A stretch of DNA of 36,043 nt from a virus. Its lineage: Duplodnaviria > Heunggongvirae > Uroviricota > Caudoviricetes. The notes under the pieces are model-generated. The model saw only the letters and a program-made list of their open reading frames with translations, ran no database searches and was not told the DNA's origin. Each line of letters opens with the position of its first letter. The first letter of the stretch is position 1. Below, in pieces: positions 721 through 35,390 of this stretch. Made by a program: the position numbers and the translations under genes. Location of the stretch: positions 1 to 36,043 of the IMG/VR virus record IMGVR_UViG_2693429599_000012. The stretch is one strand, 5' to 3'.

Positions 721-1019
721 GATTTGCCCTCGCGTGAAAAATATTTTCGATTATTTATAAAAAAGACTTGACAAAATCAAAAGGTACTGTTCCACGGGTG
801 AAATAAAGCGAGTTTTCGGCACCCCGGTATTTGATGTGCGTGTGAGATTTCAAAACAGGTGCAGTGCAGCCCACCAGCGCGGTCGCTACGCGACTATTAA
901 CACCAGCCAATCCCTTTCCCTGCCTCGATCTTTCCCTTCGTTATAAAGCGTTTTAGGCGCTCTCCTGAATGCGCAGATCAGATAAATAATTTTACGCAAA
1001 TTTAATGGAGGATAACCGG

Positions 1020-1574: not shown

Positions 1575-1624
1575 AACGCGTTATAAATAAATGTATGAAA
1601 GATGTTGAACGGGTCAACGTCTAC

Positions 1625-2240: not shown

Positions 2241-3180
2241 ATTGGCAGTAAGAAAAGTTAGTACCGTACATTTCATCATGAAGCATTGCAGCATTGCGTT
2301 TCTGTTCTTCTTCCTCATCTTCTACATCACTAGAAAAATGAGATTTGCCCTTAAAAGAACGAAGTAATTGCAGTGCAGCCATCGGATCACGCATCACATC
2401 GATTTTCACTTCTACTTCATCATTTGCGGCCTCATCAGCCGCGTTTTCAACTACTGCCACCGGAGCAACTTCTTTAGCTTTCAGTTCTTCAATTTCAGCT
2501 TTCTGGGCTTCGATAATCTGGTCTTTTTCTTCCAGTGCAGCTTTCAGTTCTGCGATCTGTGCTTCCAGTGCAGCAAAGCGATCTTCAACAACCGGAGAAA
2601 CAGCATTCACCTGTGCTTCCAGTTCCAGAAATGCTTCGCAAGATTCAATACGTTCTTTCTCTTCACCTTCATAAGCAACCAGTTCTACAACTTCTTTTTC
2701 GGTAGCGTGGCTGTTAAAGAAAACAGCAAAGTAAGGATTGCCGGATTTAGTGAAGTTCAGTTTAGCTTTTCCGGTAACTTCTTTACGACGACCGAAGGTG
2801 ATCTGGCAATCAGCGGTATCCTGAAAATCCATGTTAGGAGCGGAAACGATAGCAGTATCACCAGCAATAACCAGGTGGAACAGTTCAGAAGAGTTCTTAA
2901 CGGTAAAAGTAACGATGTGGTCTACTGCAACGTCTTTAGCAGGTTTAACGCGGTCGATTGCTTTACGAATGCCGTTAGGCAGTTTACCGTCAACACCAAA
3001 GCCAGCCGCGATCAGTGCTTCACGATGTGCTTTAAAGCCAGCGAAAGCGGATTTCTGCTGTGCAAAGGAAACATGAGCAACAACTTTCGGCTGAATCTTC
3101 TTGTTTGCTTCGGTGCCAAATTTGATAACTGCTTTAGCGTTGGTTACTTCGTTAGTGAAAAAGTTAGCGGAAAATAACAT
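2239..3180 (-). CDS. Hypothetical protein (~313 aa): N-terminal globular region, central coiled coil, acidic C-terminal tail
   Basis: GGAG RBS upstream of the ATG at complement 3178-3180 (the ORF track extends to 3243 but the internal start has the RBS). Heptad-like segment AALEAQIAELKAALEEKDQIIEAQKAEIEELKAKE and acidic DVEDEEEEQ tail. No family assigned. Confidence 0.55.
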   Translation of the reverse strand: MLFSANFFTNEVTNAKAVIKFGTEANKKIQPKVVAHVSFAQQKSAFAGFKAHREALIAAGFGVDGKLPNGIRKAIDRVKPAKDVAVDHIVTFTVKNSSELFHLVIAGDTAIVSAPNMDFQDTADCQITFGRRKEVTGKAKLNFTKSGNPYFAVFFNSHATEKEVVELVAYEGEEKERIESCEAFLELEAQVNAVSPVVEDRFAALEAQIAELKAALEEKDQIIEAQKAEIEELKAKEVAPVAVVENAADEAANDEVEVKIDVMRDPMAALQLLRSFKGKSHFSSDVEDEEEEQKRNAAMLHDEMYGTNFSYCQ

Positions 3181-3291: not shown

Positions 3292-3474
3292 TCAGTAAAC
3301 CTCGGCGGTAATCTTTACTTTAATGTCATACTTCTTTAAGAGTTTATGAAAGGTTGATTTATCGATACCCTCATTTTTAAACCACTCTTCAATTCTCACA
3401 CCCGGCGTTAACTCAAAGTAGCGTTTAGCCATTTCTAAGATGATTTCGCGAGTGAACTTAACAGGTCGTGCCAT
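3292..3474 (-). CDS. Small HTH DNA-binding protein (60 aa), resolvase/Hin-type HTH-like
   Basis: Sequence MARPVKFTREIILEMAKRYF...GIDKSTFHKLLKKYDIKV; paralogous to the 6619-6852 product and to the C-terminus of the 6881-7483 product. Confidence 0.55.
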   Translation of the reverse strand: MARPVKFTREIILEMAKRYFELTPGVRIEEWFKNEGIDKSTFHKLLKKYDIKVKITAEVY

Positions 3475-3514
3475 CTCGAATCCTCCTACAATGTGGATTA
3501 ATGATTTCTTAAAA

Positions 3515-3529
3515 AAGAGCGTTAACCGC
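3515..3529. promoter_or_regulatory. Perfect palindrome GAGCGTTAACCGCTC upstream of the small HTH gene; candidate operator
   Basis: 5-bp inverted arms around TTAAC, about 40 bp upstream of the minus-strand start codon at 3474. Confidence 0.3.
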
Positions 3530-3993
3530 TCACTATTATTTATATGGGGATTGTATTTTATTTTTCAACCCCTCACATTTATCTCTTATATATGTATTTA
3601 TAACAGAGATATGTTAAAATGTTATTCAGATGTTATCAGACGTGTTAAATGTGTTAAACCGCAGCACGAATTGCTAAAGAGAAGAACACGAATTAACCAA
3701 ATTGATGTTTATTCAATCAATTTAGAAAAATGCATAGCACTTTTTGCTAAAGCGGTGAGCATTAATTGAGCTATGAATTGTAAAGATTTGTTACAAGATT
3801 TTCTCTCAGATCCAAATCTTAACAGACATATAACAATTTAACATGGTGATAACAATAGGAAGGAAAATCGGTAAATTTTCACTTTCAATACAAATATTAT
3901 AACATATTTATCTCGAATTGTCAAGTATACCACCGATCCTACACAGTGTCAACAAAGGATTTTCAAACCTACACTAACCCTACACTATGAAAA

Positions 3994-4233
3994 TTGCCCC
4001 CGAATTTTTGCCCCCGAACAAAATCCCCAAGATTCTACTATCCCATTTTTGCCCCTGAAACCCTATATTTTTGCCCCTGAAATTCTGGGACACGGTGATT
4101 TTGCCCCTCATTTTTGCCCCTGAAATGCCAATAATTGCCCCTGAAAATCTAATTTTTGCCCCTGAAATTTGCCCCCGAAAAGGATTGGTGAGAAAAACTC
4201 TTTATAAAACATTAACTTAGCGAGGGGCAAAAG
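3994..4233. repeat. Iteron-like array: 9 direct copies of TTGCCCC(T/C)GAA(A) plus one inverted copy
   Basis: Direct copies start at about 3994, 4008, 4049, 4071, 4101, 4114, 4135, 4156 and 4169; inverted copy GAGGGGCAAAAG at 4222-4233. Spacings are 13-14, 21-22, 30 and 41 bp. Confidence 0.8.
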
Positions 4234-4320
4234 CGGGGATCGGGCGTGCATAGATATTATATAACACATTCGCTACGCTCATGTGTAAAACCAAAAACAA
4301 CAAATAACCAAAAAGATATT

Positions 4321-4368
4321 AGGAGGGCGTAGCCCGACTGCGCGAAGCGCCAACCAATTACTTCTAGT
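4321..4368. repeat. Copy 1 of a duplicated ~45 bp element (GGAGG..CG.AGCC.GACTG ... CCAAT.ACTTC)
   Basis: AGGAGGGCGTAGCCCGACTG...CCAACCAATTACTTC, related to 4751-4795 (AGGAGGCGAAGCCGACTG...ACCAATCACTTCC). Confidence 0.5.
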
Positions 4369-4381
4369 AACACTAATTTAA

Positions 4382-4604
4382 ACTAGATGATACTAGATGG
4401 TCTTAGAAGGAATTAACTAGTTTGCTCGCTCGCTTCGCTCACTCTCAAACGTCTGCGACGCCACTGCGTGGCATCGAGAATCACTTTTGAAAGGATTTTC
4501 TTAGAAAGGGATTTTAAACTAGTTACTAACTGATTCTAGAAAGATAGTAATAATCACTTTGAAGATAATAGTAGTTAACTGGTTACTAGATGATTCTAGA
4601 TCAC
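4382..4604. repeat. CTAG-rich repeat family (ACTAGATGAT(A/T)CTAGA and ~27 bp units AACT(A/G)GTTACTA..TGATTCTAGA)
   Basis: ACTAGATGATACTAGATGG at 4382-4400; units at 4517-4543 and 4577-4604; palindromic AACTAGTT at 4414-4421. Confidence 0.6.
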
Positions 4605-4750
4605 TTTAATGATCATGAAAGGTATTGGTATCCCTTCGGGATTGCAACCTTCGGTTGCTAAATTGCTTCCTGATTATAATTTCTCCAAAAGAAAGATTCT
4701 TATATTCTAAAGATACTTCTTCGTTTTGATGATGATTTAATCAAAATCTA

Positions 4751-4795
4751 TGAAGGAGGCGAAGCCGACTGAATACCAATCACTTCCAAATTAGA
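4751..4795. repeat. Copy 2 of the duplicated ~45 bp element
   Basis: See 4321-4368; lies about 70 bp upstream of the 4863 gene. Confidence 0.5.
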
Positions 4796-4862
4796 CAAAA
4801 ATTTCTCGTTATAAATAATAGTGAACTTACTTTGATTCACTTTCTTTTAGAGGATTACCACT

Positions 4863-5315
4863 ATGATCAATACTAAAACTCCTTTCGTACTTCTGGGTCT
4901 GAACCATGATGATAATCTGGATATGATGCATGTTTTCGCTAATCGTGGTTATAACATCATTCGTCATTCCGAAGACTCCAATTTCTCAACTGCTTTCTAT
5001 GCTTTTAAACGTAATGGACGCCCTACGGTGATCGTAGACTGCTTTACTGATGAAGGTCGTGAACAATACAACAACATTCCGGCAATTATTGTTCGTGATG
5101 ACCTGCCTTTTGATGTTCGTGAATATGACGTTGATTTAGGCTCTTACTACGGGATCGCGGATCTTGACCAGATTATGGCTGATTATGGTAAACAACCCGC
5201 TCAGGAAGCCCCAGAACACGATGAACAAGACGAAGATGACGACGACTACACACCAATCTGTTTCTCTTCTCACGGTGGCTTCTACGGTTACGATGAAGGC
5301 TTAGATATGCTGTAA
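4863..5315 (+). CDS. Hypothetical acidic protein (150 aa)
   Basis: GAGGA RBS; C-terminal acidic run QEAPEHDEQDEDDDDY; first plus-strand gene after the repeat region. Confidence 0.55.
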   Translation: MINTKTPFVLLGLNHDDNLDMMHVFANRGYNIIRHSEDSNFSTAFYAFKRNGRPTVIVDCFTDEGREQYNNIPAIIVRDDLPFDVREYDVDLGSYYGIADLDQIMADYGKQPAQEAPEHDEQDEDDDDYTPICFSSHGGFYGYDEGLDML

Positions 5316-5584: not shown

Positions 5585-5672
5585 GATAAAAACTTCTTAT
5601 AAATAAAATTGTTCCGGTAGTGATGCCGGAACTAGGAGGATCATCACTAAACCGTTTAAGGGGGATTTTACT

Positions 5673-6618: not shown

Positions 6619-6852
6619 TCAAAAACCTGTTGCTTCTACGATCTGACCATCACCGATCTGAACATAGAATTTAATGTCTAACTTCTTCATATTCTTATAG
6701 AATTGGGCGATTGAGATCCCATGTTCACTAAGAATCTGTTCTTTCGCTTCCTTACCACGATCCGCTGTATAGTAAGCGTAGGCAATATCAGCCATCTGTT
6801 CAGCGTTAAAACGGGCAGGACGACCGCGAGTAGCTTTAGTAGTCATAGTCAT
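6619..6852 (-). CDS. Small HTH DNA-binding protein (77 aa), paralog of the 3292-3474 product
   Basis: RGRPARF motif plus HTH GISIAQFYKNMKKLDIKF aligning with GIDKSTFHKLLKKYDIKV. Confidence 0.55.
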   Translation of the reverse strand: MTMTTKATRGRPARFNAEQMADIAYAYYTADRGKEAKEQILSEHGISIAQFYKNMKKLDIKFYVQIGDGQIVEATGF

Positions 6853-6880: not shown

Positions 6881-7483
6881 TTATTTAGAGGACTTACATT
6901 TTATCGGAAAAAGTTCTCCATCGTCAATACTCATAAAGAACTCTGCCTTAATCCCGTACTTCTTCAACCGTGAATAGTATGTACCCCGACTTATATCAAC
7001 CTTGCGAAGCACTTCAAAGAACCCTTTAGGATCGTTGTAATAGTGGCTATAACGCACGTTAGCGAGTTCTACAAACAATTCCCTTGTATCACCATAGCCT
7101 TTCTTGAATGCCTCGTTACGATAGCGTGTAACAGCGTGATTCAATCTCTTCTGTTTCAACACTTCTCGGATCGGCTTCCATTGCAACCGATAGACCGGAC
7201 CGTCATCAATCCTGTAAAACCGCTTGATATCAAAATCAAACCAATCTCGGACTCTCTGGAACTCTGTATGTGATGTTCTATGCTTCTTAAAGAAGTTGTG
7301 AACGTCTGTATAACCATTATCGCGGTAAAACTCTATTAAAATCTCTTTCGCTTCCTCACGACTAAAGCCAGATGTTGTGTAGTCGGTTTTTAAATGCTTA
7401 TGCTTAACTGGTAAACGATATTCATGATCGGTACAAGACAAGGCTAATTCTAATTCATCTCTTTGTTGTTGATTAATTAGCAT
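6881..7483 (-). CDS. Hypothetical protein (200 aa) with C-terminal HTH of the same family
   Basis: C-terminal ISRGTYYSRLKKYGIK matches the HTH of the two small paralogs; N-terminal domain unassigned. Confidence 0.5.
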   Translation of the reverse strand: MLINQQQRDELELALSCTDHEYRLPVKHKHLKTDYTTSGFSREEAKEILIEFYRDNGYTDVHNFFKKHRTSHTEFQRVRDWFDFDIKRFYRIDDGPVYRLQWKPIREVLKQKRLNHAVTRYRNEAFKKGYGDTRELFVELANVRYSHYYNDPKGFFEVLRKVDISRGTYYSRLKKYGIKAEFFMSIDDGELFPIKCKSSK

Positions 7484-7570: not shown

Positions 7571-9475
7571 ATGAAACTAATTTCTAATAAGGCCAAATTA
7601 AAAAAGATTCTTAAAAATATCTCTGCTGCAATTCGACCGCCTAAAGCCATGAAACCTAGCGAATGGGTAGAGGCTAATGTAGTTGCTACCGATGGTGTTA
7701 AAGCCGGATCGCTAATTAAATTGCATCCCTTCCAACGTGGAATGATGGACGCGATCACCGAAGACCGTAGAAAAATTGTGTTTAAATGTTCGGCGCAGTT
7801 GGGTAAGACCATGATTCTTAACGGAATTATCTTCCATCGGATCGCGAGTAACCCTACTAATATTGGGGTCTTGCAAAGTAACGTTAGGGAACTAAATTCT
7901 TGGATCGCTGGTAAGGTGAAGCCAGTATTAGAGGCAACGCCAGAATTAAAAGCGATGATCACCGACAAATCAGATCGCAATGCCGTTAACAACTCATCGA
8001 TTATTCAGCTTCGTAACGGATCGTTTATGTATTTCATGTCGTTGAATAGTCCGTCACATCTTCGCGGTAAAACACTCCCTTTGATTATTCTTGATGAAGT
8101 TGATGCGGCTGATGAGTCAGACGAAGGGAACCCGATCCAGCTAGCGGAACAACGCGCAACCACTTTCGGGGAAGATGCAAGGATCGTAATTGCTTCCACT
8201 CCAACCGCTCGTGATGGGGCGATTAACCAACAATGGGAACTCTCGGATAAGAGAAAATATCATGTCGTTTGCCAGCATTGCGGACACAAGCACGTAATGG
8301 AATGGAGTAACGTACATTTCGATTGGCATACGATTAACGGTAAATCATTACCCAACCCAGATACAGCCGTTTACCGTTGCCCTGAATGTGAAACCGACTG
8401 GACCGAAGGGGATCGCCTCCGTGCTGTTGCTCAGGGAGAATGGGTCGCCACCGAACCTAATGCGGAAGTAATCGGTTTTCATGCTAACCGCCTTATGTCT
8501 CCGTTTAGTTCTATCCGTGCGTGTGTGGTGGACTTTGCTGATAGCTACGCGAATATGTCGCTGGCAACGTTCTATAATGTGGTGCTCGGTGAAACCTTCG
8601 ATGATCTTAACGAAGATCGCACAGCCGACGAACTGGAAACGCTGAAAACTGATATTAGCCTAGACAATATTCCTGATGATGTACTGGCTCTGGTAGGTGG
8701 AGTTGACCAGCAAAAAGACCGTCTGGAATCTACCTTGCTGGGTATCTCTCGTAAGGGGATATGCGTAGTTGATCACCGATCATTCTATGATGTGAACTGC
8801 GAACGCCACGAATCGCCAGCATATGACCAGCTTTATAACTTCCTGAAAGCGAAATTCTATACCCGATCCGGTGAACGAATCCCGATGCTATCTGCTTTCG
8901 TGGACTCATCGAACGGACGAGCTACAAACGTGATCTACCGTTTTTGCACTAGGTGGCAAAACCTATGCGCCATTAAAGGCGCAAGTAATGCTGATGCTCC
9001 AATCCTTCCGGCTAAGGACACAAGAACGGGTGGTTTTACCCTTAAAATTCTGGGCGTAAACAACCTTAAAACGATGATCCGTGAAATGATTAACCGGAAC
9101 TTGAGAGACAGCGATCCTCATACGGTCTTCCAGATTGGCGACGTTCCTGATGACTATTGCGAGCAATTGCTTTCTGAACAGTTGAAACGGCAGGGTAATA
9201 CCACACGTTGGGTAAAAGTTGGTCAGCAACGAAACGAGGCTCTCGACTGCCTGGCTTATTCCTATGCTGCTTCTCGCCATGTACTCAATAAAATGTCATG
9301 GGAAAAACTCGAAGCCATCAAAGATAGTTTGAACCGTGAACCAGAAGAATCCGTAGAAGCTCCTAAATCGCAATCTGACGAGAAAATAGAAGAAACTAAG
9401 CCAATCACACGACCACAACGTAAAAACATCGCCAGACGCCCAAATAGAGGCCGTAGCTGGGTAACATCGTTCTAA
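7571..9475 (+). CDS. Terminase large subunit (lambda GpA-like)
   Basis: Walker A-like KCSAQLGKT and Walker B-like LIILDEVD; HPFQRGMMDAI near the N-terminus; 634 aa; positioned upstream of the portal gene. Confidence 0.85.
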   Translation: MKLISNKAKLKKILKNISAAIRPPKAMKPSEWVEANVVATDGVKAGSLIKLHPFQRGMMDAITEDRRKIVFKCSAQLGKTMILNGIIFHRIASNPTNIGVLQSNVRELNSWIAGKVKPVLEATPELKAMITDKSDRNAVNNSSIIQLRNGSFMYFMSLNSPSHLRGKTLPLIILDEVDAADESDEGNPIQLAEQRATTFGEDARIVIASTPTARDGAINQQWELSDKRKYHVVCQHCGHKHVMEWSNVHFDWHTINGKSLPNPDTAVYRCPECETDWTEGDRLRAVAQGEWVATEPNAEVIGFHANRLMSPFSSIRACVVDFADSYANMSLATFYNVVLGETFDDLNEDRTADELETLKTDISLDNIPDDVLALVGGVDQQKDRLESTLLGISRKGICVVDHRSFYDVNCERHESPAYDQLYNFLKAKFYTRSGERIPMLSAFVDSSNGRATNVIYRFCTRWQNLCAIKGASNADAPILPAKDTRTGGFTLKILGVNNLKTMIREMINRNLRDSDPHTVFQIGDVPDDYCEQLLSEQLKRQGNTTRWVKVGQQRNEALDCLAYSYAASRHVLNKMSWEKLEAIKDSLNREPEESVEAPKSQSDEKIEETKPITRPQRKNIARRPNRGRSWVTSF

Positions 9476-33354: not shown

Positions 33355-35034
33355 TTAAATTCCAAATTCCTGTAATGGACCTGGTATTTCCTCTTCTGGT
33401 TTCCAGTTCTTATCTGTCAGCATGTCTAAACATGGATGCAAAACAAGCCCGTTACTTTCCAGAATCTGTCTATCATTGATAGTTTTCAAATCAACGAAGA
33501 TCCGGCCTTTCCTCGGTCCTCTTGAATTTTCTATTACAACTCTCTGGGTCTTGCCATCGATGTATTCCAGTACAAACAAGTTTTTGTACTTGTCAATCCT
33601 GCTACACCCGATCCGTTTTAGAGCTTGCTTAATCTTAAACCGGACCTTAATGCGATCCTCGTTGTAAACATCTTCTAAATCAAATTCTGCGAGCTTCTCC
33701 CAGCCTTGAGAGTCAACAGAATACATTTCCTCTTCTGCCATCTTAATTTGATTGTAGAGTGTTTCACGCTCGCTATTGAGGGTAGTAATCTGATCGGCTA
33801 GCTCCTTCGTTGCTCCTGTCATAGCAGAAAGGGTAATCAGGTTATCAATCTTGCGTGATATTTCATCAATCTGTACTTTCAAAGCCGGAACCGGATTAGC
33901 CTTATCCTCAGCAATCCAGATTTTATCAGCCAGCAATTGCAATACAGCTTTCTCTAATTGATCACCTCGAAAACTCCAGTTTGTATGCACACATGCAATA
34001 CGACTAGAGCGCATTGCATCGCATGAATAACGATATTGGTTAGGACGTTTGTTAGTTCCTTTCACCTTAACCATAGCGGAACCGCAATGTTCACATTTCA
34101 ATAGACCAACACCACTAAGCAAGGGAATAGGTTTAACTTCTTCCTTGTCTCCATAGTTACATGCTCTAACACCAATGCTTTTCTTAAGGTGATAAAACTC
34201 AGCGTCATCTAGCACACGAGGATAATAATCCTTTAACTCATACTTAACGCCATCTACAGAGATTTCCTTGATACCAATCAAAGCGCGGGTATGGAACAAC
34301 CTTTCAATCATTGCCCGTGACCAGTTTGAATGCCTCTTGTGACTTGCGGCTGGTGGTGGTGTGTATGTCGCGTTAAGGTGATCCAGTATCTCGGCGGTTG
34401 ACCGTCCATTCCTGCGTAATTCCACAACTTCCTGAACAATAGGGAAGAAGACCGGATGAGGAAGCACATAACCAGATGTGGTATCAGTCCACCACATATT
34501 CTTTCCAATTTCCTCGATTGCAACAGCCGGATTTTGTGGATTTTCTTGATGAGCTTTAATCTTAATCAATGCGCTTGAGTTAGTACGATTGCGCTTAGTC
34601 TGACTTTCCTCGTTAGCTCTCGCAAACAACATGACACTCAACAGCAAATCAATAGGATTGGCATTAACCGATTCCTTGCTATAGACCTTACCATCCATGC
34701 CAGTTACGATAGTTATTCCCCTACGGATAATCGAGAGAAATAGCTCTTGTGCTTCAATGATGGATTGGCGAGAGATACGGTCTAAGTTTTCCACAACCAG
34801 CCAGCTACCAACCGGAACGGATCGACCAATCTCATCCAGAAAGCGAGATAGTGCACCTGTTCTACTGTTAGCCCCTTTGAATGCAGATACACCAAAATCC
34901 TGATAGCTTGTAACTAGCTCAAGATCATATTTTGCGGCTATCTCTGCGGCTGTTCTCTTCTGGCGTTCATAAGAACTACCATCCGCTTGCTTCATAGACG
35001 AGAAGCGAATATACGAATACAGTTTAGTTTTCAT
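33355..35034 (-). CDS. Large serine recombinase (integrase-type)
   Basis: N-terminal resolvase-type catalytic motif YSYIRFSSMKQADGSSYERQ (catalytic Ser in FSS); recombinase domain; zinc-ribbon-like CEHCGS...YRYSCDAMRSSRIAC; C-terminal coiled coil. Start placed at ATG complement 35032-35034 (the track's 35049 start is TTG). Confidence 0.85.
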   Translation of the reverse strand: MKTKLYSYIRFSSMKQADGSSYERQKRTAAEIAAKYDLELVTSYQDFGVSAFKGANSRTGALSRFLDEIGRSVPVGSWLVVENLDRISRQSIIEAQELFLSIIRRGITIVTGMDGKVYSKESVNANPIDLLLSVMLFARANEESQTKRNRTNSSALIKIKAHQENPQNPAVAIEEIGKNMWWTDTTSGYVLPHPVFFPIVQEVVELRRNGRSTAEILDHLNATYTPPPAASHKRHSNWSRAMIERLFHTRALIGIKEISVDGVKYELKDYYPRVLDDAEFYHLKKSIGVRACNYGDKEEVKPIPLLSGVGLLKCEHCGSAMVKVKGTNKRPNQYRYSCDAMRSSRIACVHTNWSFRGDQLEKAVLQLLADKIWIAEDKANPVPALKVQIDEISRKIDNLITLSAMTGATKELADQITTLNSERETLYNQIKMAEEEMYSVDSQGWEKLAEFDLEDVYNEDRIKVRFKIKQALKRIGCSRIDKYKNLFVLEYIDGKTQRVVIENSRGPRKGRIFVDLKTINDRQILESNGLVLHPCLDMLTDKNWKPEEEIPGPLQEFGI

Positions 35035-35052
35035 ACCATTTCCAAACAAAAA

Positions 35053-35345: not shown

Positions 35346-35390
35346 AGTAGAATTTCCTCTTGTTATTTGAATTACGATATATTTATATCG

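Follow-up and report, generated by a model that had tools for sequence, protein, structure and literature searches.

The DNA considered here, the whole of which we call the window (36,043 nt; virus record IMGVR_UViG_2693429599_000012), is almost entirely occupied by a single prophage, an uncharacterised temperate siphovirus-type element of Escherichia coli, and our subject is the segment at positions 4321-4795, the right-hand half of a gene-free region of 1.1-1.4 kb that separates the leftward early genes (those for the 60-aa p60 and the 313-aa p313) from the rightward ones (p150, p51 and Rha/Ant). Judging from sequence comparison, this segment is a real, strongly conserved non-coding control region, and we infer, with a probability of about 0.4, that it is a DNA-level operator/promoter array of the early switch region of the phage. 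This reading explains the location of the segment, the indifference of its modules to orientation, the uncompensated drift of its inverted copies, the fixed spacing between a recurrent motif and the rightward promoter, and a conservation above that of the neighbouring genes. The original prediction, made from the letters of the sequence, described a duplicated element bracketing CTAG-rich repeats and short hairpins, and guessed at an operator cluster, a centromere-like array or small structured RNAs. The operator cluster fits best, considering the position between divergent early operons, the approximately 10 strong copies of the motif, the phased CTAG decamers and the dyad element that are described below.

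The motif in question, which we denote M (AATCMCTTYC, 11 nt), is asymmetric and occurs in both orientations, once as a palindromic pair (4479/4488). When scored with a position weight matrix (PWM), the 1.1-kb region holds 10 matches of at least 11 bits, as against 11 in the other 35 kb, and 18 matches of at least 8 bits, as against a mean of 1.5 in shuffled versions of the region, an enrichment that is partly circular because the PWM was trained on the same region. Both the probable p150 promoter (copies at 4778 and 4835) and the leftward promoters (copies at 3877 and 3952) are flanked by M. In particular, 23 of 30 loci have M ~40 nt upstream of the expected p150 start and 30-34 nt ahead of the invariant TTATAAATA box; the remaining seven have the variant ATCACTCTTTTC in its place, three of them with a 43-nt insertion there. 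The same M-to-box spacing recurs ahead of another gene, at a module that lies outside the gene-free region (module F, 882-921, plus strand), where the hairpin GTCGC-TAC-GCGAC is followed by CCAATCCCTTTCC, ~30 nt upstream of TCGTTATAAAG, before a TerS-like gene. The probable p150 promoter and 5' untranslated region (4792-4862, plus strand) consist of TAGACA, 16 nt and AATAAT, the latter embedded in the invariant TTATAAATAAT (4809-4819), followed by another M (4835-4845), the Shine-Dalgarno sequence AGAGGA and the ATG at 4863.

How strongly is this DNA constrained? We compared 28 distinct versions of the region, from E. coli genomes, IMG/VR and metagenomes. In every relative, 1.26-1.46 kb without an annotated gene extend from the leftward 60-aa gene to the rightward gene of ~150 aa; the left half of this interval is lineage-specific, and from ~4481 rightward the sequence is common to all lineages. 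The core at 4615-4748 is 93-100% identical where the p150 gene is 73-74% identical at the nucleotide level and 61-64% at the amino acid level, the block at 4478-4514, with three copies of M, is nearly invariant across lineages, and ATGAAGGAGG and GACTGAATAC, the flanks of the hairpin in the rightmost module, are invariant. Comparative alignment, which the original prediction had proposed as a check, shows the core to be shared across all lineages and reveals no conserved hidden open reading frame (ORF). The segment is indeed non-coding, there being no ORF of at least 40 aa between 4270 and 4826, and none of the ORFs of at least 20 aa is conserved in the relatives. The longest of these (33 aa, 4609-4710) has lost the initiation codon in the majority of relatives, while elsewhere a 1-nt indel shifts its frame, and a 14-codon ORF starting from the ATG at 4750 changes frame among relatives.

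From the anatomy of the segment, its conservation, the fixed spacing of M to the promoter and the homology to phage sequences, all of which are directly established, we infer that proteins bind, which regulator is involved, that the promoters are active and what the hairpins do, in the following manner. Proteins would bind the segment chiefly in its double-stranded form, at many closely packed sites, for which we propose M as an asymmetric operator (about 10 strong copies), the CTAG decamers phased at 10 bp and the dyad element, E. The binders would be one or more phage regulators conserved across the family, with the small helix-turn-helix (HTH)-like proteins p60, p77 and p200 as candidates. 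The bound complex would tune the rightward promoter, and with it the expression of the p150 gene and the Rha/anti-repressor operon, with module C providing the -40 site of this promoter and a further M lying at about +15; the same complex would control the two consensus leftward promoters, which are also flanked by M. The other modules of the segment, A and the inverted D and B, might be auxiliary sites for cooperative binding or looping, and E might be a promoter-like module without a -35 element, in which the dyad is followed by TAGAAT ~14 bp from its proximal arm. The mini-hairpins are selected for pairing, but their role is the least certain step; they may be insulators or attenuators of read-through transcripts or else extrudable landmarks in the DNA. 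That the modules occur in both orientations and that the paired inverted copies change without compensation is in keeping with DNA sites rather than RNA helices.

Switch regions with multiple operators are familiar from phage Mu (O1-O3 of the c repressor), phage P1 (the asymmetric C1 operators) and phage 186 (the flanking sites of CI). The present array is similar to these in that it contains many short asymmetric sites, in both orientations, which are distributed between divergent early promoters over a length of several hundred bp, with some overlapping promoters and others distal. It differs in the coupling of the sites to mini-hairpins, in having candidate regulators only and in the lack of similarity to the operators of those phages.

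The building block of the segment is a module in which one or two G+C-rich mini-hairpins, for the most part C(GNA)G triloops, precede a tail rich in pyrimidines, CCAATnnCTTyC, itself an instance of M. When each module is read on its own strand, nearly all the triloops are of the C(GNA)G kind, with the loops GTA, GAA and GCA. All the features flagged by the original prediction are present in the sequence at 4321-4795, the only correction being to the position of the palindrome GCCAC-TGC-GTGGC, which is found at 4460-4472 rather than at 4456-4468 and is abutted by another hairpin, CGTC-TGC-GACG (4450-4460). The two related copies of ~45 bp (4321-4368 and 4751-4795), which correspond to modules A and C, are real: they share a first block (AGGAGGGCGTAGCCCGACTG and AGGA-GGCGAAG-CCGACTG, respectively), the alignment of which was equalled by 2 of 2000 shuffles, and a second block (CCAATTACTTC and CCAATCACTTCC). 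Instead of a mere duplication, however, there is a family of at least five modules on both strands, in which A with D and B with C form two imperfect inverted repeats (I4 and I1); in I4, 4336-4349 is complementary to 4431-4444.

Read from left to right, the segment begins with module A (4321-4368, plus strand), which comprises AGGAGG, GGGC-GTA-GCCC (4325-4335), GACT, GCGC-GAA-GCGC (4340-4350) and M in the form CCAATTACTTCTAG (4354-4367). The first CTAG-rich block (4364-4421) contains the decamers ACTAGATGAT, ACTAGATGGT, CTTAGAAGGA and ATTAACTAGT, with a period of ~10 bp; in type-II relatives, its position is taken by a different spacer. Module D (4396-4473) is inverted and reads, on the minus strand, GCCAC-GCA-GTGGC (4472-4460), GTC-GCA-GAC (4460-4450), GCGAAGC (4438-4432) and M as AATTCCTTCTA (4414-4404). 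The three copies of M at 4478-4514 are the palindromic pair AATCACTTTT and GAAAGGATT (4479, plus; 4488, minus) and AGAAAGGGATT (4503, minus), which is the best-scoring copy of all. There follows a tandem duplication of ~60 bp (4517-4576 and 4577-4636), each unit of which carries AACTnGTTACTAnnTGATTCTAGA and M as ATCACTTT, the CTAG boxes on the minus strand reading cTAGAAT. The units of ~27 bp that had been noticed earlier (4517-4540 and 4577-4600, 88% identical; D5) belong to this longer duplication (D5 plus D8), which is carried by only some relatives, the copy number being 1-2 and recombination break-points falling within it; the ACTAGATGAT(A/T)CTAGA repeats are likewise found, at 4382-4398 and 4585-4601 (94% identical; family D2). 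Module B (4613-4658), again inverted, reads GCAACC-GAA-GGTTGC, A, ATCCC-GAA-GGGAT, A and CCAATACCTTTCA on the minus strand, with the heptamer CCGAAGG in both hairpins, which on the plus strand are the reported hairpins with TTC loops (ATCCC-TTC-GGGAT, 4630-4642; GCAACC-TTC-GGTTGC, 4644-4658). A conserved A+T-rich spacer (4659-4700; TGATTATAAT here and TGATTATTAT in most relatives) leads to element E (4701-4748, minus strand), with the dyad TTTTGAT-N9-ATCAAAA at 4724-4746 and, on the minus strand, a flank (CGAAGAA...TAGAAT) made up of CGAAGAAGTATCTT and the -10-like TAGAAT at 4709-4704. Module C (4749-4795, plus strand) consists of (C/T)ATGAAGGAGG, GGC-GAA-GCC (4758-4766), GACTGAATAC and M as CCAATCACTTCC (4776-4787).

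The concentration of these features is striking in numerical terms. Eight of the 54 CTAG sites of the window are located within 4364-4599, where ~0.6 would be expected (Poisson P ~3e-7), words containing CTAG are enriched 20- to 450-fold over the rest of the window by k-mer count, and AACTAGT occurs four times in the region and not once in the remaining 35 kb. Hairpins with a C(GNA)G triloop and a stem of 4 bp or more number eight in the whole window, and six of them fall within 4325-4658.

The hairpins persist among relatives through changes in their sequence. The hairpin of module C exists in five forms (GGC-GAA-GCC, GGGC-TTTA-GCCC, GGGC-TTT-GCCC, GGGC-TAT-GCCC and TGGC-TTTA-GCCA), without a mismatch in any of the 30 loci and with one compensated exchange of G-C for T-A, and both hairpins of module A are kept, with varying loops and stem lengths (GTA, TTTA or TTT in the one; GAA, GTA or TTTA in the other). 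In the relatives L004, L012 and L030, module B is swapped for unrelated, perfectly paired hairpins (TGC-TTC-GCA; GACGCTC-TAGG/TGGA/TAGA-GAGCGTC), and module D is represented in type-II relatives by ACGCC-GTA-GGCGT with CCAATCCCTTTCG and in L004 by an inverted GGAGG-hairpin-GACTG. Such retention of local hairpins through changes of stem and loop could reflect a role of RNA or of single-stranded or extruded DNA. Another kind of variation affects E, the flank of which with the -10-like hexamer is found on the other side of the dyad in L012, L029 and L030, where the hexamer reads TATAAT. Because this flip might betray an invertible promoter switch of the Hin/Fim type, bounded by modules B and C, we searched 56 genomes with a query in which 4659-4748 was inverted. 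There was no colinear high-identity match, the full-length matches being only 73.8% identical, and the lack of a high-identity inverted arrangement in any genome points to an old rearrangement rather than phase variation.

Part of the segment has counterparts in phages that are otherwise quite different. Positions 4670-4754, comprising much of the spacer and E, match intergenic DNA in 59 phage records at 77-85% identity, and the records that were listed or inspected all belong to Krischvirus (RB49-like phages), a connection that had escaped the original prediction. Element E by itself is 88-89% identical to its Krischvirus counterpart; against phage RB49, the match extends over 45 nt with 88.9% identity (E-value 1.4e-12) and is located in the 410-nt spacer between ORF165c and ORF164c, where E follows a terminator and precedes ORF164c in the sense orientation. 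The order on the RB49 coding strand is terminator, first copy of E, ~55 nt, a pair of hairpins (ACTCC-GTA-GGAGT, then TCGC-GAA-GCGA) that ends in the tail ATATCCTTTT, second copy of E, a hairpin and the promoter-like site of the gene, so that E, spacer, twin hairpins and tail follow one another as they do on the minus strand of the window. Each Krischvirus genome has E at 1-3 places. The window encodes no homologue of RB49 ORF164c, ORF165c, 24.3 or ORF167c, and on the evidence of this alignment E appears to have been exchanged between RB49-like phages and the present prophage lineage. By eye, ORF164c (343-930 in L032) displays a DprA/Smf-like signature, GSR...SGGAYGMD.

RB49/phi1-type T4-like phages possess regulatory cassettes known as promoter-early stem-loops (PeSLs) (Arbiol et al., 2010, PMC2839356; Comeau et al., 2014, PMC4122927). 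Our segment resembles PeSLs in being made of short conserved intergenic modules with a promoter-like part and a G+C stem-loop (GGGC...GCCC here), in the location of these modules upstream of ORFan genes and at recombination break-points, and in the homology of E and the spacer to intergenic sequence of RB49. Nevertheless, the near-perfect TTGACA-N17-TATAAT that defines the PeSLs of RB49 is absent inside 4321-4790, and on account of this missing consensus promoter we reject membership in the family. The GGGC-loop-GCCC hairpins are 35-90 nt away from -10-like boxes rather than within a promoter, and there are ~5-6 copies here, mostly clustered (four of five modules), as opposed to ~50 dispersed copies per RB49/phi1 genome. 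The matching spacer between ORF165c and ORF164c of RB49 is not mentioned in the text of the PeSL paper (PMC2839356).

Immediately to the left of the segment lies an array whose pairing with a lineage-specific protein the original prediction had also missed. Approximately 10 direct copies of TTTTGCCCCTGAAA, at 3990-4235 on the plus strand, with spacings of 13-43 bp (several of 21-22 or 41-43 bp) and one inverted copy at 4222-4232, form an iteron array that is the only non-coding tandem repeat of the window. The iterons are lineage-specific, with four unrelated types at the same place (type II being AACCTACACTA), and their type is in perfect co-variation with the N-terminal ~180 aa of a neighbouring coiled-coil ORFan of 313-340 aa (p313 in the window, 2242-3180, minus strand) and not with p60, p150, Rha, p77 or p200. 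The p313 protein is 99% identical in type-I loci and 18-29% identical elsewhere, with the same architecture. Going by this co-variation, p313 is probably the cognate DNA-binding protein of the array. The conserved p60 gene and its leader separate the iterons from the p313 gene, and the single-sequence structure model of p313 (predicted local distance difference test score of 46) is unusable.

So what speaks against an array of operators? Apart from the circularity in the counts of M, no regulator was found: by Pfam, PHROGs, NCBIfam and PDB, every early protein is an ORFan. Inside 4321-4790, neither strand has a strong sigma-70 promoter at a consistent position; the only promoter match within or overlapping the segment is TAGACA-16-AATAAT at 4792-4819, and the promoter PWM scores are 8-11 bits, compared to ~17.6 for the consensus, at positions that are not conserved. 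An operator model alone leaves the selection for hairpin pairing unexplained: the kept pairing of stems of 3-7 bp with loops of 3-4 nt indicates that nucleic-acid structure matters, and hairpins of the C(GNA)G type are known from initiation sites (PMC13037366). The adjacent iterons with their cognate protein also suggest that replication functions are located nearby.

The main rival reading, which we regard as doubtful albeit worthy of serious attention, is that the segment is part of a replication origin, in which p313 binds the iterons and opens the A+T-rich DNA, and the mini-hairpins fold or extrude as single-strand initiation (ssi) signals, in analogy to the DnaG sites of the G4 type or to ssiA/ssiB of RSF1010 oriV; such a function would be compatible with operators in the same DNA. 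The C(GNA)G sequence is a motif of extraordinarily stable DNA mini-hairpins that have been documented at the primase origin of G4, at ssiA of RSF1010, which contains CCGAAGG, and also at the hairpin promoters of phage N4 (PMC13037366). The hairpins described here share with the G4 and RSF1010 sites the C(GNA)G triloops, the stems of 3-7 bp and, in module B, the very heptamer of ssiA, and most of the C(GNA)G hairpins of the window are arranged here as inverted pairs on opposite strands beside an iteron array, which is also the layout of RSF1010 oriV. We could recognise nothing else in the phage that would serve replication. An invariant CTG is located 2 nt 3' of the hairpins in modules A and C, which is the arrangement at the start site of G4 primase; modules B and D, however, have no CTG after their hairpins. 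There is neither a RepB'-type primase nor homology to the known ssi sites, the window yielded no primase and no helicase loader, the helicase of some relatives is absent here, and many of the loop variants are non-GNA (TTTA, TTT, TAT, CCTA). Boxes for DnaA, IHF and Fis are not enriched, those for DnaA and IHF not exceeding the shuffle expectation, and the GC-skew profile is uninformative. Moreover, module F and the RB49 copy precede ordinary genes rather than iterons, and p313 lacks a recognisable initiator fold.

The hairpins at 4460-4472, 4630-4642 and 4644-4658 also have the stem of 5-7 bp and the 3-nt loop of N4 promoters (PMC13037366), but the T7-like virion RNA polymerase of ~3500 aa that goes with these is lacking, the largest ORFs of the window (1258 and 1176 aa) encoding tail-fibre/tail-tip proteins. 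A broader proposal, in which the modules of mini-hairpin and tail represent DNA initiation signals of a new, structure-specific class and belong, with the iterons and a coiled-coil initiator, to an undescribed type of origin, strikes us as improbable. Under this proposal, the C(GNA)G hairpins would extrude from supercoiled or unwound DNA and be read either by a phage factor or by a host enzyme such as primase or RNA polymerase, and the cassettes would be portable between virulent Krischvirus phages and a temperate siphovirus lineage.

We also consider it unlikely that the segment functions through RNA, in such a way that E or a weak promoter drives a leader or small RNA, the twin triloops and CCAAU..CUUUC tail of which bind a protein or stabilise the transcript. 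The succession of E, spacer, twin hairpins and pyrimidine tail on a single strand, in the window and in RB49 alike, is compatible with this scenario, as are the orientation of the -10-like flank of E toward module C in L012 and L029, the persistence of loops and tails in copies with different stems, and a variant in L027 that can pair only as G-T and only on the module's own strand. Fold prediction, carried out as the original prediction had advised, gives structures that beat shuffled sequences on both strands (z-scores of -3.8 and -3.5), but this follows from the pairing of the inverted modules with one another, and the long-range helices show no covariation: the RNAalifold covariation term is -0.27 kcal/mol, the long-range pairs are either invariant or broken, and those between B and C never co-vary. 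Rfam 15 yields no match at the gathering score and nothing beyond chance level at E<=5, ARAGORN finds no tRNA or tmRNA, the region contains no terminator, and internal promoter scores are mediocre. The small structured RNAs of the original prediction are thus not supported, although the local hairpins are kept among relatives. Stems of 3-4 bp with triloops are, furthermore, of marginal stability as RNA, and the modules are found on both strands.

Could the segment have no unified function at all, being a patchwork of remnants of promoter/stem-loop cassettes that are kept as homology for modular recombination, as has been proposed for PeSLs in RB49 and phi1? The relatives are indeed mosaic, with break-points at ~4481, 4540-4615 and 4580, as well as duplications, deletions, the 43-nt insertion and the flipped flank of E, and the cassette is common to RB49-like phages, in which promoter/stem-loop cassettes have been reported to mediate shuffling (PMC2839356). 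We nonetheless rate this explanation as quite improbable. The core at 4615-4748 remained nearly identical while the flanking genes diverged to about 62% amino acid identity, and this, along with the invariant ATGAAGGAGG and GACTGAATAC blocks, the maintained pairing and the fixed M-to-promoter spacing, implies purifying selection on specific features.

A recognition region (cos/pac) for packaging by the lambda GpA-type terminase is very improbable: repeats and G+C islands are present, and four independent metagenomic/viral contigs (L015, L021, L022 and L030) end in the gene-free region, 301-849 nt upstream of the p150 gene, but such ends are equally well explained by assembly breaks at repeats, the genes for the TerS-like protein (1005-1574) and the large terminase (from 7571) are both distant, and the iterons track p313 rather than a terminase subunit. 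The centromere-like function suggested by the original prediction finds no support, as the window encodes no ParA/ParM-type partner and no partition ATPase or adaptor families, there is no match in the plasmid collection, and the element integrates by means of a serine recombinase. The parC centromere of plasmid R1 is built of phased short repeats, and the CTAG decamers, with their phase of ~10 bp, are reminiscent of these; the differences are the lack of partition genes, the chromosomal integration and the presence of only 3-4 phased units per block. A type III toxin-antitoxin system (ToxIN-like), with its tandem direct RNA repeats and a terminator right before the toxin gene, is a poor fit: the repeats are degenerate and in both orientations, the p150 gene is preceded by a promoter-like box but no terminator, and the model of p150 has a generic alpha/beta fold.

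Returning to the array of operators, it should be emphasized that regions of repeats serving a phage as switch or origin are familiar in kind, and that what we did not find described are the modules combining mini-hairpin and operator, their sharing with Krischvirus, the lineage-specific pairing of iterons and coiled-coil protein, and the recurrent TTATAAATA box. The 1.8 kb around the segment are present in 58 of 5426 complete E. coli genomes (~1%), in every case in the chromosome, and the early genes of this prophage family are all ORFans. The segment, as the most conserved non-coding DNA of the family, is the obvious entry point to its regulation. It is also a clear case of a non-coding regulatory cassette that is common to a temperate siphovirus-type prophage and to virulent T4-like phages, and bears on how regulatory modules pass from one phage group to another, unrelated one. 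Should a function be demonstrated for the C(GNA)G mini-hairpins, a natural example will be added to a very short list of biological roles for mini-hairpins in DNA.

Several further observations concern the surroundings of the segment. A box, (T)TATAAATA(A/C)T, that holds the core of the T4 late promoter, TATAAATA, occurs eight times in the window, at 752-760 (minus), 1580-1589 (plus), 3537-3544 (minus), 3595-3604 (minus), 4808-4817 (plus), 5597-5605 (plus) and 35380-35387 (minus), and as a variant at 939-948 (plus). Seven of the eight copies are intergenic or in a leader, in the sense orientation, 30-75 nt upstream of early-region genes, and the box may be a phage-specific promoter element. 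The two consensus leftward sigma-70 promoters are located at 3896-3952 (3952->3924 and 3924->3896). They are followed, on the 3' side, by a leader of ~370 nt and an intrinsic terminator (GAGCGGTTAACGCTC plus a run of T, 3531->3510) ahead of the start of the 60-aa gene at 3474 (3475-3952 of the window, minus strand). In other lineages the terminator is kept in the p60 leader with a different sequence (AGAGC-GAAA-GCTCT), and this arrangement suggests an attenuated leader or a non-coding RNA.

With respect to the early proteins, sequence searches of Pfam, PHROGs, NCBIfam and PDB yielded nothing for p60, p77, p200, p101, p94, p51, p150 or p313, and homologue searches returned only near-identical proteins of E. 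coli. A weak match of p60 to HTH_Tnp_1 (E-value 0.0015) was noticed, and by eye a common motif, ...S..TFY..LKKY.IK..., can be discerned in p60 (3292-3474, minus), p77 (6619-6852, minus) and the C-terminus of p200 (6881-7483, minus); these three appear to be paralogous small HTH-like proteins. The 150-aa ORFan p150 (4863-5315) is confined, in a homologue search, to Escherichia and Shigella. Its AlphaFold model consists of a generic alpha/beta domain, predicted with confidence and without a significant neighbour in PDB, followed by a disordered acidic tail, and its C-terminus, ...YGYDEGLDML, is invariant. One may speculate that this terminus resembles a docking peptide, such as a sliding-clamp-binding motif.

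As for the prophage as a whole, megablast of the window against sequenced phages and plasmids produced no match to it in its entirety and no DNA similarity beyond the ~85-nt match to Krischvirus; the best phage match of the large terminase has 43% identity, and a literature search for the prophage (ycdX and prophage) returned nothing relevant. Its structural and packaging genes encode the TerS-like protein, the large terminase of the lambda GpA type, portal, fused protease/capsid, tail tube and tape measure proteins, and the other recognisable products are a T4 gp37-like fibre, an M15 peptidase, GIY-YIG-type nucleases and a large serine recombinase of 564 aa (33355-35049), the sole recombinase of the element. 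The TerS-like gene (1005-1574; phrog_57, E-value 3.6e-14) stands alone, 6 kb upstream of the gene for the large terminase (7571-9475), and the whole early region is situated between the two, with two leftward genes directly before the latter. Positions 1-351 we take to encode the N-terminal part of HicB. The insertion site differs within the prophage family, being the HicB-like ORF (hicB) in the window and ycdX in E. coli KSC64 (L002/L003, NZ_CP018840.1).

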